From assembly GCA_000002435.2 (NCBI GenBank), contig AACB03000021.1: DNA of 8,483 nucleotides; one strand, given 5' to 3'. The stretch is from Giardia intestinalis (taxonomy: Eukaryota). Both the position numbers and the translations under genes were made by a program. Numbering within the stretch: the first letter of the stretch is position 1; each line of letters begins with the position of its first letter. Below, one piece after another: positions 1 through 8,483 of this stretch. The notes below the pieces were generated by a model. The model searched no databases and was not told the DNA's origin. It saw nothing but the letters and a program-made list of their open reading frames with translations.

Positions 1-3000
1 GCAGCAAGAGGCGCCCGTCGAAGAACCTGAAGCGCCCGTTGAGGAGCCCGAGGAGCACGCCTTGCAGACCCCGCGGAGCCCGTCGAAGAACCTGAAGCGC
101 CCGTTGAGGAGCCCGAGGAGGCAGGCCTTGCAGAGCCCGCGGAGCCCGTCGAAGAACCCGAGCAGCAAGAGGCGCCCGTCGAAGAACCTGAAGCGCCCGT
201 TGAGGAGCCCGAGGAGGCACGCCTTGCAGACCCGCGGAGCCCGTCGAAGAACCTGAAGCGCCCGTTGAGGAGCCCGAGGAGGCACGCCTTGCAGAGCCCG
301 CGGAGCCCGTCGAAGAACCTGAAGCGCCCGTTGAGGAGCCCGAGGAGGCACGCCTTGCAGACCCGCGAGCCCGTCGAAGAAAACCTGAAGCGCCCGTTGA
401 GGAGCCGAGGAGGCACGCCTTGCAGAGCCCGCGGAGCCCCGTCGAAGAACCCGAGCAGCAAGAGGCGCCCGTCGAAGAACCTGAAGCGCCCGTTGAGGAG
501 CCCGAGGAGGCACGCCTTGCAGACCCGCGAGCCCGTCGAAGAACCTGAAGCGCCCGTTGAGGAGCCCGAGGAGGCACGCCTTGCAGAGCCCGCGGAGCCG
601 TCGAAGAACCTGAAGCGCCCGTGAGGAGCCCGAGGAGGCACGCCTTGCAGAGCCCGCGGAGCCCGTCGAAGAACCTGAACGCCCGTTGAGGAGCCCGAGG
701 AGGCACGCCTTGCAGAGCCCGCGGAGCCCGTCGAAGAACCCCGCAGCAAGAGGCCCGTCGAAGAACCTGAAGCGCCCGTTGAGGAGCCCGAGGAGGCACG
801 CCTTGCAGACCCGCGGAGCCCGTCGAAGAACCCGAGCAGCAAGAGGCCCGTCGAAGAACCTGAAGCGCCCGTTGAGGAGCCCGAGGAGGCACGCCTTGCA
901 GAGCCCGCGGAGCCCGTCGAAGAACCCGAGCAGCAAAGAGGCGCCCGTCGAAGAACCTGAAGCGCCCGTTGAGGAGCCCGAGGGAGGCACGCCTTGCAGA
1001 GCCCCGCGGAGCCCGTCGAAGAACCTGAAGCGCCCGTTGAGGAGCCCCGAGGAGGCACGCCTTGCAGGAGCCCGCCGGCGAGGCCCCGTCGAAGAACCTG
1101 AAGCGCCCCGTTGAGGAGCCCGAGGAGGCACGCCTTGCAGAGCCCGCGGAGCCCGTCGAAGAACCCGAGCAGCAAGAGGCGCCCGTCGAAGAACCTGAAG
1201 CGCCCGTTGAGGAGCCCGAGGAGGCACGCCTTGCAGAGCCCGCGGAGCCCGTCGAAGAACCCGAGCAGCAAGAGGCGCCCGTCGAAGAACCTGAAGCGCC
1301 CGTTGAGGAGCCCGAGGAGGCACGCCTTGCAGACCCCCGCGGAGCCCGTCGAAGAACCTGAAGCGCCCGTTGAGGAGCCCGAGGAGGCACGCCTTGCAGA
1401 GCCCGCGGAGCCCGTCGAAGAACCCGAGCAGCAAGAGGCGCCCGTCGAAGAACCTGAAGCGCCCGTTGAGGAGCCCGAGGAGGCACGCCTTGCAGACCCG
1501 CGGAGCCCGTCGAAGAACCCGAGCAGCAAGAGGCGCCCGTCGAAGAACCTGAAGCGCCGTTGAGGAGCCCGAGGAGGCACGCCTTGCAGACCCCGCGGAG
1601 CCCGTCGAAGAACCTGAAGCGCCCGTTGAGGAGCCCGAGGAGGCACGCCTTGCAGACCCGCGGAGCCCGTCGAAGAACCTGAAGCGCCCGTTGAGGAGCC
1701 CGAGGAGGCACGCCTTGCAGAGCCCGCGGAGCCCGTCGAAGAACCTGAAGCGCCCGTGAGGACCCGAGGAGCACGCCTTGCAGAGCCGCGGAGCCCGTCG
1801 AAGAACCTGAAGCGCCCGTTGAGGAGCCCGAGGAGGCACGCCTTGCAGAGCCCGCGGAGCCCGTCGAAGAACCCGAGCAGCAAGAGGCGCCCGTCGAAGA
1901 ACCTGAAGCGCCCGTTGAGGAGCCCGAGGAGGCACGCCTTGCAGAGCCCGCGGAGCCCGTCGAAGAACCCGAGCAGCAAGAGGCGCCCGTCGAAGAACCT
2001 GAAGCGCCCGTTGAGGAGCCCGAGGAGGCACGCCTTGCAGACCCCGCGGAGCCCGTCGAAGAACCCGAGCAGCAGAGGCGCCCGTCGAAGAACCTGAAGC
2101 GCCCGTTGAGGAGCCCGAGGAGGCACGCCTTGCAGACCCCGCGGAGCCCGTCGAAGAACCTGAAGCGCCCGTTGAGGAGCCCGAGGAGGCACGCCTTGCA
2201 GAGCCCGCGGAGCCCGTCGAAGAACCTGAAGCGCCCGTTGAGGAGCCCGAGGAGGCACGCCTTGCAGACCCGCGGAGCCCGTCGAAGAACCTGAAGCGCC
2301 CGTTGAGGAGCCCGAGGAGGCACGCCTTGCAGAGCCCGCGGAGCCCGTCGAAGAACCCGAGCAGCAAGAGGCGCCCGTCGAAGAACCTGAAGCGCCCGTT
2401 GAGGAGCCCGAGGAGGCACGCCTTGCAGACCCCGCGGAGCCCGTCGAAGAACCCGAGCAGCAAGAGGCGCCCGTCGAAGAACCTGAAGCGCCCGTTGAGG
2501 AGCCCGAGGAGGCACGCCTTGCAGACCCCGCGGAGCCCGTCGAAGAACCCGAGCAGCAAGAGGCGCCCGTCGAAGAACCTGAAGCGCCCGTTGAGGAGCC
2601 CGAGGAGGCACGCCTTGCAGACCCCGCGGAGCCCGTCGAAGAACCCGAGCAGCAAGAGGCGCCCGTCGAAGAACCTGAAGCGCCCGTTGAGGAGCCCGAG
2701 GAGGCACGCCTTGCAGACCCGCGGAGCCCGTCGAAGAACCCGAGCAGCAAGAGGCGCCCGTCGAAGAACCTGAAGCGCCCGTTGAGGAGCCCGAGGAGGC
2801 ACGCCTTGCAGACCCCGCGGAGCCCGTCGAAGAACCTGAAGCGCCCGTTGAGGAGCCCGAGGAGGCACGCCTTGCAGAGCCCGCGGAGCCCGTCGAAGAA
2901 CCCGAGCGCGAGGCGCCCGTCGAAGAACCTGAAGCGCCCGTTGAGGAGCCCGAGGAGGCACGCCTTGCAGAGCCCGCGGAGCCCGTCGGAAGAACCTGAA

Positions 3001-6000
3001 GCGCCCGTTGAGGAGCCCGAGGAGGCACGCCTTGCAGAGCCCGCGGAGCCCGTCGAAGAACCTGAAGCGCCCGTTGAGGAGCCCGAGGAGGCACGCCTGC
3101 AGACCCCGCGGAGCCCGTCGAAGAACCCCTCGGACCAGCGCCCGTTGAGGAGCCCGAGGAGGCACGCCTTGCAGACCCCGCGGAGCCCGTCGAAGAACCC
3201 GAGCAGCAAGAGGCGCCCGTCGAAGAACCTGAGCGCCCGTTGAGGAGCCCGAGGAGGCACGCCTTGCAGACCCCGCGGAGCCCGTCGAAGAACCCGAGCA
3301 GCAAGAGGCGCCCGTCGAAGAACCTGAAGCGCCCGTTGAGGAGCCCGAGGAGGCACGCCTTGCAGACCCGCGGAGCCGTCGAAGACCCGAGCAGCAAGAG
3401 GCGCCGTCGAAGAACCTGAAGCGCCCGTTGAGGAGCCCGAGGAGGCACGCCTTGCAGACCCCGCGGAGCCCGTCGAAGAACCCGAGCAGCAGAGGCGCCC
3501 GTCGAGAACCTGAAGCGCCCGTTGAGGAGCCCGAGGAGGCACGCCTTGCAGACCCGCGGAGCCCGTCGAGAACCCGAGCAGCAAGAGGCGCCCGTCGAAG
3601 AACCTGAAGCGCCCGTTGAGGAGCCCGAGGAGGCACGCCTTGCAGACCCCGCGGAGCCCGTCGAAGAACCCGAGCAGCAAGAGGCGCCCGTCGAAGAACC
3701 TGAAGCGCCCGTTGAGGAGCCCGAGGAGGCACGCCTTGCAGACCCCGCGGAGCCCGTCGAAGAACCCGAGCAGCAAGAGGCGCCCGTCGAAGAACCTGAG
3801 CGCCCGTTGAGGAGCCCGAGGAGGCACGCCTTGCAGACCCCGCGGAGCCCGTCGAAGAACCCGAGCAGCAAGAGGCGCCCGTCGAAGAACCTGAAGCGCC
3901 CGTTGAGGAGCCCGAGGAGGCACGCCTTGCAGACCCGCGGAGCCCGTCGAAGAACCTGAAGCGCCCGTTGAGGAGCCCCGAGGAGGCACGCCTTGCAGAG
4001 CCCGCGGAGCCCGTCGAAGAACCCGAGCAGCAAGAGGCGCCCGTCGAAGAACCTGAAGCGCCCGTTGAGGAGCCCGAGGAGCACGCCTTGCAGACCCCGC
4101 CGGGAGCGCCGTCGAAGAACCTGAAGCGCCCGTTGAGGAGCCCGAGGAGGCACGCCTTGCAGACCCGCGGAGCCCGTCGAAGAACCTGAAGCGCCCGTTG
4201 AGGAGCCCGAGGAGGCACGCCTTGCAGACCCCGCGGAGCCCGTCGAAGAACCTGAAGCGCCCGTTGAGGAGCCCGAGGAGCACGCCTTGCAGAGCCCGCG
4301 GAGCCGTCGAAGAACCTGAGCGCCCGTTGAGGAGCCCGAGGAGGCACGCCTTGCAGAGCCCGCGGAGCCGTCGAAGAACCCGAGCAGCAAGAGGCGCCGT
4401 CGAAGAACCTGAAGCGCCCGTTGAGGAGCCCGAGGAGGCACGCCTTGCAGACCCCGCGGAGCCCGTCGAAGAACCTGAAGCGCCCGTTGAGGAGCCCGAG
4501 GAGGCACGCCTTGCAGACCCGCGGAGCCCGTCGAAGAACCTGAAGCGCCCGTTGAGGAGCCCGAGGAGGCACGCCTTGCAGACCCCGCGGAGCCCGTCGA
4601 AGAACCTGAAGCGCCCGTTGAGGAGCCCGAGGAGGCACGCCTTGCAGAGCCCGCGGAGCCCGTCGAAGAACCCGAGCAGCAAGAGGCGCCCGTCGAAGAA
4701 CCTGAAGCGCCCGTTGAGGAGCCCGAGGAGGGCACGCCTTGCAGACCCGCGGAGGCCCCGTCGAAGAACCTGAAGCGCCCGTTGAGGAGCCCGAGGAGGC
4801 ACGCCTTGCAGAGCCCGGCGGAGCCCGTCGAAGAACCTGAGCGCCCGTTGAGGAGCCCGAGGAGGCACGCCTTGCAGACCCCGCGGAGCCCGTCGAAGAA
4901 CCTGAAGCGCCCGTTGAGGAGCCGAGGAGGCACGCCTTGCAGAGCCCGCGGAGCCCGTCGAAGAACCTGAAGCGCCCGTTGAGGAGCCCGAGGAGGCACG
5001 CCTTGCAGAGCCCGCGGAGCCCGTCGAAGAACCCGAGCAGCAAGAGGCGCCCGTCGAAGAACCTGAAGCGCCCGTTGAGGAGCCCGAGGAGGCACGCCTT
5101 GCAGACCCCGCGGAGCCCGTCGAAGAACCGAGCAGCAAGAGGCGCCCGTCGAAGAACCTGAAGCGCCCGTTGAGGAGCCCGAAGGAGGCACGCCTTGCAG
5201 ACCCCGCGGAGCCCGTCGAAGAACCTGAAGCGCCCGTTGAGGAGCCCGAGGAGGCACGCCTTGCAGAGCCCGCGGAGCCCGTCGAAGAACCCGAGCAGCA
5301 AGAGGCGCCCGTCGAAGAACCTGAAGCGCCCGTTGAGGAGCCCGAGGAGGCACGCCTTGCAGAGCCCGCGGAGCCCGTCGAAGAACCCGAGCAGCAAGAG
5401 GCGCCCGTCGAAGAACCTGAAGCGCCCGTTGAGGAGCCCGAGGAGGCACGCCTTGCAGACCCCGCGGAGCCCGTCGAAGAACCTGAAGCGCCCGTTGAGG
5501 AGCCCGAGGAGGCACGCCTTGCAGACCCGCGGAGCCCGTCGAAGAACCTGAAGCGCCCGTTGAGGAGCCCGAGGAGGCACGCCTTGCAGACCCGCGGAGC
5601 CCGTCGAAGAACCCGAGCAGCAAGAGGCGCCCGTCGAAGAACCTGAAGCGCCCGTTGAGGAGCCCGAGGAGGCACGCCTTGCAGACCCCGCGGAGCCCGT
5701 CGAAGAACCTGAAGCGCCCGTTGAGGAGCCCGAGGAGGCACGCCTTGCAGAGCCCGCGGAGCCCGTCGAAGAACCTGAAGCGCCCGTTGAGGAGCCCGAG
5801 GAGGCACGCCTTGCAGAGCCCGCGGAGCCCGTCGAAGAACCTGAAGCGCCCGTTGAGGAGCCCGAGGAGGCACGCCTTGCAGAGCCCGCGGAGCCCGTCG
5901 AAGAACCTGAAGCGCCCGTTGAGGAGCCCGAGGAGGCACGCCTTGCAGAGCCCGTCGAAGAACCTGAAGCGCCCGTTGAGGAGCCCGAGGAGGCACGCCT

Positions 6001-8483
6001 TGCAGAGCCCGCGGAGCCCGTCGAAGAACCTGAAGCGCCCGTTGAGGAGCCCGAGAGGCACGCCTTGCAGAGCCCGTCGAAGAACCTGAAGCGCCCGTTG
6101 AGGAGCCCGAGGAGGCACGCCTTGCAGAGCCCGCGGAGCCCGTCGAAGAACCTGAAGCGCCCGTTGAGGAGCCCGAGGAGGCACGCCTTGCAGAGCCCGT
6201 CGAAGAACCTGAAGCGCCCGTTGAGGAGCCCGAGGAGGCACGCCTTGCAGACCCGCGGAGCCCGTCGAAGAACCTGAAGCGCCCGTTGAGGAGCCCGAGG
6301 AGGCACGCCTTGCAGAGCCCGTCGAAGAACCTGAAGCGCCCGTTGAGGAGCCCGAGGAGGCACGCCTTGCAGAGCCCGTCGAAGAACCTGAAGCGCCCGT
6401 TGAGGAGCCCGAGGAGGCACGCCTTGCAGAGCCCGCGGAGCCCGTCGAAGAACCTGAAGCGCCCGTTGAGGAGCCCGAGGAGGCACGCCTTGCAGAGCCC
6501 GTCGAAGAACCTGAAGCGCCCGTTGAGGAGCCCGAGGAGGCACGCCTTGCAGAGCCCGCGGAGCCCGTCGAAGAACCTGAAGCGCCCGTTGAGGAGCCCG
6601 AGGAGGCACGCCTTGCAGAGCCCGTCGAAGAACCTGAAGCGCCCGTTGAGGAGCCCGAGGAGGCACGCCTTGCAGAGCCCGCGGAGCCCGTCGAAGAACC
6701 TGAAGCGCCCGTTGAGGAGCCCGAGGAGGCACGCCTTGCAGAGCCCGCGGAGCCCGTCGAAGAACCTGAAGCGCCCGTTGAGGAGCCCGAGGAGGCACGC
6801 CTTGCAGACCCCGCGGAGCCCGTCGAAGAACCCGAGCAGCAAGAGGCGCCCGTCGAAGAACCTGAAGCGCCCGTTGAGGAGCCCGAGGAGGCACGCCTTG
6901 CAGACCCGCGGAGCCCGTCGAAGAACCTGAAGCGCCCGTTGAGGAGCCCGAGGAGGCACGCCTTGCAGAGCCCGCGGAGCCCGTCGAAGAACCTGAAGCG
7001 CCCGTTGAGGAGCCCGAGGAGGCACGCCTTGCAGAGCCCGCGGAGCCCGTCGAAGAACCTGAAGCGCCCGTTGAGGAGCCCGAGGAGGCACGCCTTGCAG
7101 ACCCGCGGAGCCCGTCGAAGAACCCGAGCAGCAAGAGCGCCCGTCGAAGAACCTGAAGCGCCCGTTGAGGAGCCCGAGGAGGCACGCCTTGCAGACCCCG
7201 CGGAGCCCGTCGAAGAACCTGAAGCGCCCGTTGAGGAGCCCGAGGAGGCACGCCTTGCAGAGCCCGCGGAGCCCGTCGAAGAACCCGAGCGCAAGAGGCG
7301 CCCGTCGAAGAACCTGAAGCGCCCGTTGAGGAGCCCGAGGAGGCACGCCTTGCAGAGCCCGCGGAGCCCGTCGAAGAACCTGAAGCGCCCGTTGAGGAGC
7401 CCGAGGAGGCACGCCTTGCAGACCCCGCGGAGCCCGTCGAAGAACCCGAGCAGCAAGAGGCGCCCGTCGAAGAACCTGAAGCGCCCGTTGAGGAGCCCGA
7501 GGAGGCACGCCTTGCAGAGCCCGCGGAGCCCGTCGAAGAACCCGAGCAGCAAGAGGCGCCCGTCGAAGACCTGAAGCGCCCGTTGAGGAGCCCGAGGAGG
7601 CACGCCTTGCAGAGCCCGCGGAGCCCGTCGAAGAACCTGAAGCGCCCGTTGAGGAGCCCGAGGAGGCACGCCTTGCAGACCCCGCGGAGCCCGTCGAAGA
7701 ACCCGAGCAGCAAGAGGCGCCCGTCGAAGAACCTGAAGCGCCCGTTGAGGAGCCCGAGGAGGCACGCCTTGCAGACCCGCGGAGCCCGTCGAAGAACCCG
7801 AGCAGCAAGAGGGCCCGTCGAAGAACCTGAAGCGCCCGTTGAGGAGCCCGAGGAGGCACGCCTTGCAGACCCGCGGAGCCCGTCGAAGAACCTGAAGCGC
7901 CCGTTGAGGAGCCCGAGGAGGCACGCCTTGCAGAGCCCGCGGAGCCCGTCGAAGAACCCGAGCAGCAAGAGGCGCCCGTCGAAGAACCTGAAGCGCCCGT
8001 TGAGGAGCCCGAGGAGGCACGCCTTGCAGACCCCGCGGAGCCCGTCGAAGAACCTGAAGCGCCCGTTGAGGAGCCCGAGGAGGCACGCCTTGCAGAGCCC
8101 GCGGAGCCCGTCGAAGAACCTGAAGCGCCCGTTGAGGAGCCCGAGGAGGCACGCCTTGCAGAGCCCGCGGAGCCCGTCGAAGAACTGAACGCCCGTTGAG
8201 GAGCCCGAGGAGGCAGCCTTGCAGAGCCGCGGAGCCCGTCGAAGAACCTGAAGCGCCCGTTGAGGAGCCCGAGGAGGCACGCCTTGCAGACCCGCGGAGC
8301 CCGTCGAAGAACCTGAAGCGCCCGTTGAGGAGCCCGAGGAGGCACGCCTTGCAGACCCCGCGGAGCGTCGAAGAACCTGAAGCGCCCGTTGAGGAGCCCG
8401 AGAGGCACGCCTTGCAGACCCGCGGAGCCCGTCGAAGAACCTGAAGCGCCCGTTGAGGAGCCCGAGGAGGCACGCCTTGCAGA
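1..8483 (+). CDS. Internal fragment (no start, no stop) of a putative giant acidic Pro/Glu-rich tandem-repeat protein with repeat PVEEPEAPVEEPEEARLA[E/D]PAE, with or without the PVEEPEQQEA pre-insert. As given, the frame is interrupted by many 1-nt indels, so this may be a pseudogene or an error-containing read.
   Basis: The core consists of three 18-nt sub-repeats (cccgtcgaagaacccgag / cccgtcgaagaacctgaa / cccgttgaggagcccgag). These differ only at positions 6, 9, 12, 15 and 18, which are the third codon positions of this frame, so all three encode PVEEPE. Almost all unit-length variants are multiples of 3 (57, 66, 96, plus 27-nt inserts and +3/+6 core variants). The longest clean stretch in this frame is about 6261-6913 (about 217 codons). 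A minus-strand Ser/Gly-rich frame (SAGSARRASSGSSTGASGSSTG) shares the same wobble positions and cannot be excluded. Confidence 0.4.
240..305. repeat. Reference canonical 66-nt unit (core 240-293, linker gagcccgcggag 294-305)
   Basis: Read directly from the sequence. The adjacent unit 175-239 is the 65-nt variant with linker gacccgcggag at 229-239. Confidence 0.9.
1067..1090. other. Divergent linker island 'ggagcccgccggcgaggccccgtc' replacing the canonical 'gagcccgcggagcccgtc'
   Basis: Direct comparison with the canonical unit. This is the local maximum of irregularity in the indel-rich 5' part of the window. Confidence 0.6.
2344..2822. repeat. Run of five consecutive insert-bearing units (96, 96, 96, 95, 96 nt), each being the 30-nt pre-insert plus core plus D-type linker
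   Basis: Units fall at 2344-2439, 2440-2535, 2536-2631, 2632-2726 (CCC linker at 2716-2726) and 2727-2822. Each begins with cccgtcgaagaacccgagcagcaagaggcg. Confidence 0.85.
3128..3140. other. Unique 13-nt segment 'cctcggaccagcg' replacing the canonical 7-nt 'tgaagcg' inside a core (net +6 nt, in-frame)
   Basis: This is the only place in the window where the core sequence is substituted rather than changed by a 1-nt indel. In the PVEEPE frame it reads EEPLGPAPVEE instead of EEPEAPVEE. Confidence 0.6.
5696..6818. repeat. Insert-free sub-domain of 18 units lacking the 30-nt pre-insert. It contains all nine 57-nt units, alternating with 66-nt units as a 123-nt higher-order repeat (5894-6674).
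   Basis: The 'gag' short linkers lie at 5948-5950, 6070-6072, 6193-6195, 6315-6317, 6372-6374, 6495-6497 and 6618-6620. Full linkers interleave at 6005-6016, 6127-6138, 6429-6440, 6552-6563 and 6675-6686. No 'cagcaagagg' pre-insert occurs between 5624 and 6818. Confidence 0.85.

Follow-up and report, generated by a model that had tools for sequence, protein, structure and literature searches.

Clustered 57-nt units and a 123-nt higher-order repeat within a tandem array that probably encodes a giant acidic repeat domain

The stretch of contig AACB03000021.1 analysed here (hereafter the window, 8,483 nucleotides (nt), positions 1–8483) lies wholly inside a single uninterrupted tandem array, both ends of which are beyond the window. 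Within this array, a block of 18 consecutive repeat units was found to lack a 30-nt insert, and all units shortened to 57 nt were clustered inside that block, where they alternate with 66-nt units to form a higher-order repeat of 123 nt. We consider it likely (probability about 0.68) that the window belongs to a giant acidic-repeat array evolving by local block amplification, in which the 57+66 block arose by local duplication and the numerous one-base insertions and deletions (indels) are technical.

To define the repeat units, the sequence was cut at the conserved boundary between ...CGCCTTGCA and GA using a short anchor with two-template splitting, and each unit was classed by its edit distance to five templates. 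Segmentation and template classing resolved the array into 110 full units and a partial first unit carrying the insert. Once one-base errors were removed, five unit types remained: a 57-nt unit, a 66-nt unit with either a GAG or a GAC linker and a 96-nt unit with either linker. Overlapping periods of 21, 66, 96, 123, 131 and 162 nt were reported by Tandem Repeats Finder over all 8,483 bases. GC content was flat at 68–70% along the window, and A strongly exceeded T.

1..8483, + strand: whole array, from Tandem Repeats Finder, segmentation and frame analysis; the likely frame, GAG CCC GTC ..., reads EPVEEPEAPVEEPEEARLA(E/D)PA.
57-nt units: n=7.
66-nt units: n=61, 29 with the GAGCCCGCG ('E') linker and 32 with the GACCCCGCG ('D') linker.
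96-nt units: n=42, 20 E and 22 D, carrying the 30-nt insert CCCGTCGAAGAACCCGAGCAGCAAGAGGCG.

Written as a string of unit types (s, 57 nt; e or d, 66 nt; E or D, 96 nt), the array reads dEdedEdeeEDEeeEEdEDddeeEEDdedEDDDDdEeedDDDDDDDDdEdddeEdddEdedeEDdEEddDdeeesesesdsseseseeDdeeDdEeDEeDDdEdeeeddd.

The 18 units without the insert are units 71–88, at 5684–6806. A run of at least 18 such units was rare when the unit order was shuffled (permutation p = 0.0027). These are the same units that the original prediction, made from the sequence alone, had placed at 5696–6818 in a register shifted by 12 nt. The prediction had also put the frequency of the insert elsewhere at about 40% of units, in agreement with the 46% observed outside the block and 38% overall. 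The block is divided as follows.

5684..5947, + strand: 5' part of the insert-free block; four 66-nt units, one with a D linker and then three with an E linker.
5948..6674, + strand: 57-nt cluster; seven 57-nt units alternating with 66-nt units, forming the 123-nt (57+66) higher-order repeat.
6675..6806, + strand: 3' part of the insert-free block; two 66-nt E-linker units, the first of which is entered by the 123-periodic stretch.

The diagnostic junction of the 57-nt units, TTGCAGAGCCCGTCG, occurs in the whole window only at 5943, 6065, 6188, 6310, 6367, 6490 and 6613, and the units themselves occupy 5948–6004, 6070–6126, 6193–6249, 6315–6371, 6372–6428, 6495–6551 and 6618–6674. Among all 110 full units, none other than these seven measured 54–60 nt. 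Both the junction and the unit lengths therefore give seven 57-nt units rather than the nine originally counted. Their clustering was upheld, since all seven lie within 12 consecutive units (units 75–86, 5948–6674; exact P = 1.4e-6 for a span of at most 12 of 110), as was the description of the variant as an in-frame 9-nt deletion. The deletion is exact in 7/7 cases, with no other edit in those units.

The order of units in the 12-unit span is sesesdsseses, corresponding to six 57+66 dimers and one extra 57-nt unit with a period of 123 nt. For seven 57-nt units and five others this alternation is maximal, a state reached by 6 of 252 possible arrangements (p = 0.024). The longest exact internal repeat in the window is 310 nt and pairs 6315 with 6438 at a lag of 123, so that 6315–6747 is perfectly 123-periodic. 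The predicted alternation and 123-nt period are thus borne out, and 5948–6674 shows what defines a higher-order repeat, with two or more recognisable monomers recurring several times head to tail in a set order. After error correction, the 9-nt indel and the base that sets the E or D linker are the sole differences among the monomers of the repeat copies. One 57+66 dimer carries a D linker (unit 80), and the unit order shows a match at a lag of seven units, sesesds followed by seses (p about 0.05).

The D (GAC) linker is nearly absent from the block, being present in 2/18 units compared with 52/92 elsewhere (Fisher p = 5e-4). Once all units had been classed, the distributions of the 57-nt units, the insert and the D linker were all non-random, which is contrary to the random placement that had been named in advance as the outcome that would refute the prediction. 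The array is thus genuinely divided into sub-domains, far more clearly than chance would produce. The non-random placement of the 57-nt variant, of insert absence and of D-linker depletion supports block amplification, the three markers being not fully independent because one and the same linker is involved in both the deletion and the E/D state.

The sequence context of the length variants is consistent with an origin by slippage. The 9-nt deletion takes out one copy of GAGCCCGCG lying between 7-nt direct repeats, GAGCCCG(CG)GAGCCCG(TC), whose match is perfect in E-type linkers alone. A 14-nt direct repeat, CCCGTCGAAGAACC, flanks the 30-nt insert. Both variants in length thus originate at short direct repeats within the unit, and short direct repeats bounding indels are classic slippage substrates. 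Under the proposed model, the 57-nt variant would have had a single origin by replication slippage in an insert-free, E-linker neighbourhood, and recombination out of register, or slippage, between neighbours would then have amplified the 123-nt dimer about six-fold. At the single point where two 57-nt units adjoin, a segment of 5–7 units may have been duplicated in a further round, as the lag-seven match also hints, or one 66-nt unit may have been lost. The sub-domains are most simply explained by local duplication among neighbours, and block amplification of this kind would lengthen or shorten a spacer-like domain by 19 to 41 residues at a time.

Alignment of each unit with its template gave 73 deletions, 31 insertions and 2 substitutions, amounting to 1.26% of bases. 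Deletions per base increased with homopolymer length, from 0.24% in runs of one base to 0.88% in runs of two, 1.15% in runs of three and 10.6% in runs of four. Runs of four bases occur only as the CCCC in the D linker, which was read as CCC in 23/54 D linkers. An excess of indels, a deletion bias and a dependence on homopolymers make up the known error profile of PacBio and Oxford Nanopore (ONT) sequencing. Given the 52:1 excess of indels over substitutions, the deletion bias and the dependence on homopolymer length, the one-base indels were judged to be long-read sequencing or consensus errors and would carry no evolutionary signal.

The density of edits varied along the window, from 28 per kb at the 3' end and 17 per kb in units 1–61 to 5–6 per kb in the flanks of the block and 1.8 per kb within it. 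The block had been predicted to show the lowest indel density, and numerically its edit density is indeed the lowest of all 18-unit stretches. The difference from the immediate flanks was not significant (p = 0.085), the whole 5.0–8.0 kb part of the window is low in edits, and the block holds two copies of the CCCC hot spot compared with 14 in the flanks. Because the indels are most probably technical, their low density is no evidence of unit age or of recent homogenisation, and this part of the original argument fails. It would be mistaken to infer unit age, decay or frameshifts from the one-base indels of the window. A neighbour-joining tree of units, which had been proposed as a check, was likewise uninformative, with five haplotypes after correction and 2 substitutions in 8.4 kb.

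The CCC form of the D linker (GACCCGCGG instead of GACCCCGCG G) can be seen, for example, at 229–239, 1655–1665 and 6250–6260. Three short scrambled spots at 1067–1090, 3125–3145 and 4093–4112 (units 14, 39 and 50) contain several inserted or changed bases, unlike the usual one-base indels, and look like local consensus failures.

The coding potential of the array was assessed from its periodicity and from differences between sub-repeats. The unit lengths of 57, 66 and 96 nt, the indels of 9 and 30 nt and the sub-repeat of 21 nt are all multiples of three, and G or C occupies every third base throughout. Three readings fit this G/C periodicity: frame +0, giving EPVEEPEAPVEEPEEARLA(E/D)PA; frame +1, giving SPRSPSKNLKRPLRSPRRHALQ; and antisense frame -0, giving CKACLLGLLNGRFRFFDGL. 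The invariant G/C is codon position 1 in frame +0 and codon position 3 in frames +1 and -0. The 21-nt sub-repeats within a unit, CCCGTCGAAGAACCTGAAGCG and CCCGTTGAGGAGCCCGAGGAG, differ at six sites, of which five are third positions in frame +0 and synonymous, so that PVEEPE is kept. Frame +0 was chosen because the sub-repeat differences are synonymous there and residue-changing in the other two. Frames +1 and -0, both with 100% third-position GC, were rejected, the differences being all non-synonymous in them. Near-identical PVEEPEAPVEEPE linkers occur in natural proteins with unrelated domains and were counted as further support for frame +0; the other frames gave nothing comparable in the protein search. 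Frame +0 is thus likely to be the coding frame. Its third-position GC of 63% would fit a genome of moderate GC content, with the 69% GC of the array coming from its amino-acid composition.

When each unit is replaced by its template, frame +0 is open over 2,819 codons, an opening that depends on treating the one-base indels as errors; the uncorrected + frames contain 62–80 stops each (104 one-base indels). There is no ATG on either strand of the window, which starts and ends within the array. The minus strand has zero stop codons in all frames and the plus strand contains only TGA, in one conceptual frame, and gene callers could accordingly report long spurious open reading frames in the array. 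A Pfam holin match to frame -0 (30 bits) was set aside as spurious-looking, being a single partial match to positions 8–53 of a 116-position profile.

The 66-nt (22-residue) unit is composed of 21-nt heptad sub-repeats of the form PVEEPE[A/E/Q], as at 5696–5737. The heptads in the unit are PVEEPEA and PVEEPEE, and the insert, which adds PVEEPEQQEA, contributes a third heptad, PVEEPEQ; the 9-nt deletion corresponds to a loss of EPA. The heptad sub-repeats show an older layer of the repeat hierarchy. The predicted protein is composed of 39% E, 22% P, 17% A, 9% V, 4% R, 4% L, 3% Q, 2% D and 0% K, with a net charge of about -1,041 (about -0.37 per residue), a computed isoelectric point of 4.05 and a mass of about 309 kDa. 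A single-sequence AlphaFold (AF2) model had a predicted local distance difference test score (pLDDT) of 55, a predicted template modelling score (pTM) of 0.11 and no secondary structure, hinting that the protein may be intrinsically disordered. The most likely product of the array is a repeat domain of extreme acidity, intrinsically disordered and rich in Pro, Glu, Ala and Val. There is a single Arg per unit, and trypsin would be expected to release unit-length EPVEEPEAPVEEPEEAR-type peptides of 19–32 residues.

Several other explanations of the block were considered. Recurrent independent slippage at a GAGCCCG(CG)GAGCCCG deletion hot spot would make each 57-nt unit a separate event requiring no block duplication. 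The 7-nt direct repeat is a plausible substrate and, being perfect only in E linkers, is well represented in the E-rich block, but 45 E-derived units outside the 12-unit span have no deletion and all seven deletions fall among the span's 11 of 56 E-derived units (P = 1.4e-6 for a span chosen post hoc, or roughly 1e-4 allowing for about 100 spans). Strict alternation and 310 nt of perfect identity at lag 123 would also be unexpected from independent events, and we regard this origin as very improbable. An assembly or consensus artefact, in which an assembler joining or collapsing units out of register produced the 57/66 pattern, or at least the number of its copies and the extent of the insert-free run, is also unlikely. 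Residual indel errors of about 1.3% with strong regional variation in quality are what would be expected of an under-polished long-read product, and register errors are easily made among units that are otherwise identical. Against this, the 9-nt deletion is exact in 7/7 units that are otherwise edit-free, long-read errors here are nearly all one-base events, and sequence quality in the window is best where the block lies. Exact repeats reach 310 nt at most, the longest of them lie in error-free units and nothing suggests that a stretch was used twice, error-sharing duplicates not having been directly tested. Moreover, mis-joining can alter copy number but cannot create a new unit variant.

The array might instead be a non-coding satellite or decayed pseudogene, a GC-rich minisatellite with no long frame in which the one-base indels, especially CCC versus CCCC, are real. 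The 62–80 interruptions of the + frames as read, the presence of CCC in about 40–50% of D linkers in high- and low-error regions alike and the failure to find a protein homologue would all be compatible with this. Mutational decay, however, would not be expected to leave 104 indels to 2 substitutions with a deletion bias and homopolymer dependence, and the larger length variants are all multiples of three, the sub-repeat differences are synonymous in frame +0 and G/C is strict at every third base. A non-coding satellite should lack codon periodicity and frame-specific constraint, which is not what was found, nor was there an Rfam match. We consider this possibility quite unlikely.

Other observations weigh against an acidic-repeat coding array shaped by local block amplification. 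The evidence comes from a single, visibly error-laden sequence, and the order and copy number of near-identical units are what long-read assemblers most easily get wrong. The corrected units differ only by the three class-defining variants, which leaves no independent marker of shared dimer ancestry, and the effects of unequal crossing-over, slippage and gene conversion are indistinguishable here. The original step from clustering to local block amplification therefore holds as far as the variants are non-random, without singling out unequal crossing-over or gene conversion. The frame is broken about 100 times as read, so that coding rests on the indels being errors, and third-position GC is only 63% in frame +0 compared with 100% in frames +1 and -0. 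The window contains no start, stop or flanking domain, and no homologue was found. Finally, CCC makes up about 43% (40–50%) of D linkers whatever the local error rate, which is odd for random error. Such constancy points to an error made systematically at GACCCCGCGG, a real variant being the less likely alternative. The overlap of this hot spot with CCGCGG might mean that basecalling erred systematically there, possibly on account of methylation.

Searches for relatives of the array covered both nucleotide and protein sequences. A 'distant' blastn search gave no match in plasmids or phages, exact 41-mer scans of contigs from genomes, viruses and metagenomes gave none either, and a degenerate 36-nt back-translated pattern was not found in viral contigs. 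In a local test, tblastn with default SEG masked the repeat query fully and missed the window itself. Locus scans of genome, metagenome and viral contigs gave pattern matches that tblastn did not confirm; since this confirmation step SEG-masks the query, these scans are uninformative on EP-rich repeats. A word-indexed protein search with frame +0 and a chimera of four other open frames returned compositional noise only, an exact look-up of three full-length antisense translations gave no match, and a literature search for the peptide and DNA motifs found none. No PDB or Rfam match was obtained, and no Pfam family matched frame +0 at E ≤ 1. An exhaustive phmmer search gave 29 weak matches, the best at 62 bits. 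These were rejected as homologues on account of their unrelated domain architectures (peritrophin, S-layer, Big_4, KH and GDSL lipase) and were taken to be convergent EP-rich linkers.

A tentative proposal, to which we give somewhat less than an even chance, is that the array forms part of a genuine, expressed gene whose polyanionic, Pro/Glu-rich product exceeds 300 kDa, has a net charge below -1,000 and is without a homologue among about 15 billion predicted proteins. If truly expressed, the protein would have more than 2,800 residues, 39% of them Glu, with no detectable relatives, and might serve as a giant polyanionic spacer or in ion binding. Block amplification of 19–41-residue modules would then tune the length of what would be a giant disordered protein acting as a spacer or in cation binding.

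Tandem arrays, whether coding (silks, mucins and surface antigens) or satellites, are well known to amplify blocks locally and to show higher-order periodicity. The present finding adds an example of this known behaviour and no new principle. In the Latrodectus silk protein MaSp1, aggregates of about 120 residues are repeated 20 times with 97.5% nucleotide identity, for which unequal crossing-over has been invoked (PMC1885213). The array resembles Latrodectus MaSp1/MaSp2 dragline silk in being a very long and, here, probably coding array with a hierarchy of motif, ensemble and higher-level aggregate and with copies near-identical at the nucleotide level; in silk, length variants are put down to slippage and block duplications to unequal crossing-over, a division comparable to that proposed here (PMC1885213). 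The two have no sequence relation, being rich in Glu/Pro here and in Gly/Ala in silk, and the higher-order unit of silk spans the whole gene, whereas the 123-nt repeat covers about 0.7 kb of at least 8.4 kb.

A similar likeness holds for satellite higher-order repeats such as alpha satellite, in which ordered monomers are multiplied as blocks, homogenisation is local and neighbours are more alike than distant units; reviews of the subject include PMC8122249. The array differs from alpha satellite in its coding periodicity, with lengths in multiples of three, G/C at every third base and synonymous sub-repeat differences. Alpha-satellite monomers also differ from one another by roughly 20–40%, whereas the monomers here differ only by one 9-nt indel.

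Among proteins, there is a resemblance in character to the Pro/Glu spacers of surface or secreted proteins, including P0010 (Big_4), P0006 (S-layer SbsC-type C-terminal domain) and P0009; P0010 contains EAPVEEPEAPVEEPE seven times. Like the predicted domain, such spacers are acidic, proline-rich and presumably extended linkers. They consist, however, of 100–200 residues of a simple heptad beside folded domains that differ between proteins, whereas the array encodes, in the likely frame, a 22-residue composite with an EEARLA(E/D)PA segment in at least 111 repeats, with no folded domain in the window. The resemblance was judged convergent because the adjoining domains differ from protein to protein. 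The PEVK region of titin is a long disordered P/E/V-rich region with repeats of about 28 residues, Glu-rich segments and super-repeats, acting as an entropic spring or spacer. The array is loosely similar in its long, P/E/V-rich and predicted disordered repeats, but it falls outside the PEVK type in having no lysine, no Pfam match to the titin repeat models at E ≤ 1 and no sequence relation.

Beyond the insert-free block, traces of other multi-unit periodicities were observed as dEde dEde, EdddeEddd and eeDd eeDd (67–649, 3998–4646 and 6675–7259). Autocorrelation of unit types at lag 4 was significant over the whole array (p = 0.006), with no individual run significant. A second locally amplified sub-domain is present upstream of the insert-free block.

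3174..3931, + strand: second sub-domain; eight consecutive identical 96-nt D-linker units with the insert (permutation p about 0.003–0.004).

These eight identical units could have been generated by the same process as the 57+66 block. Four more 96-nt D-linker units, at 2428–2810, precede this run.

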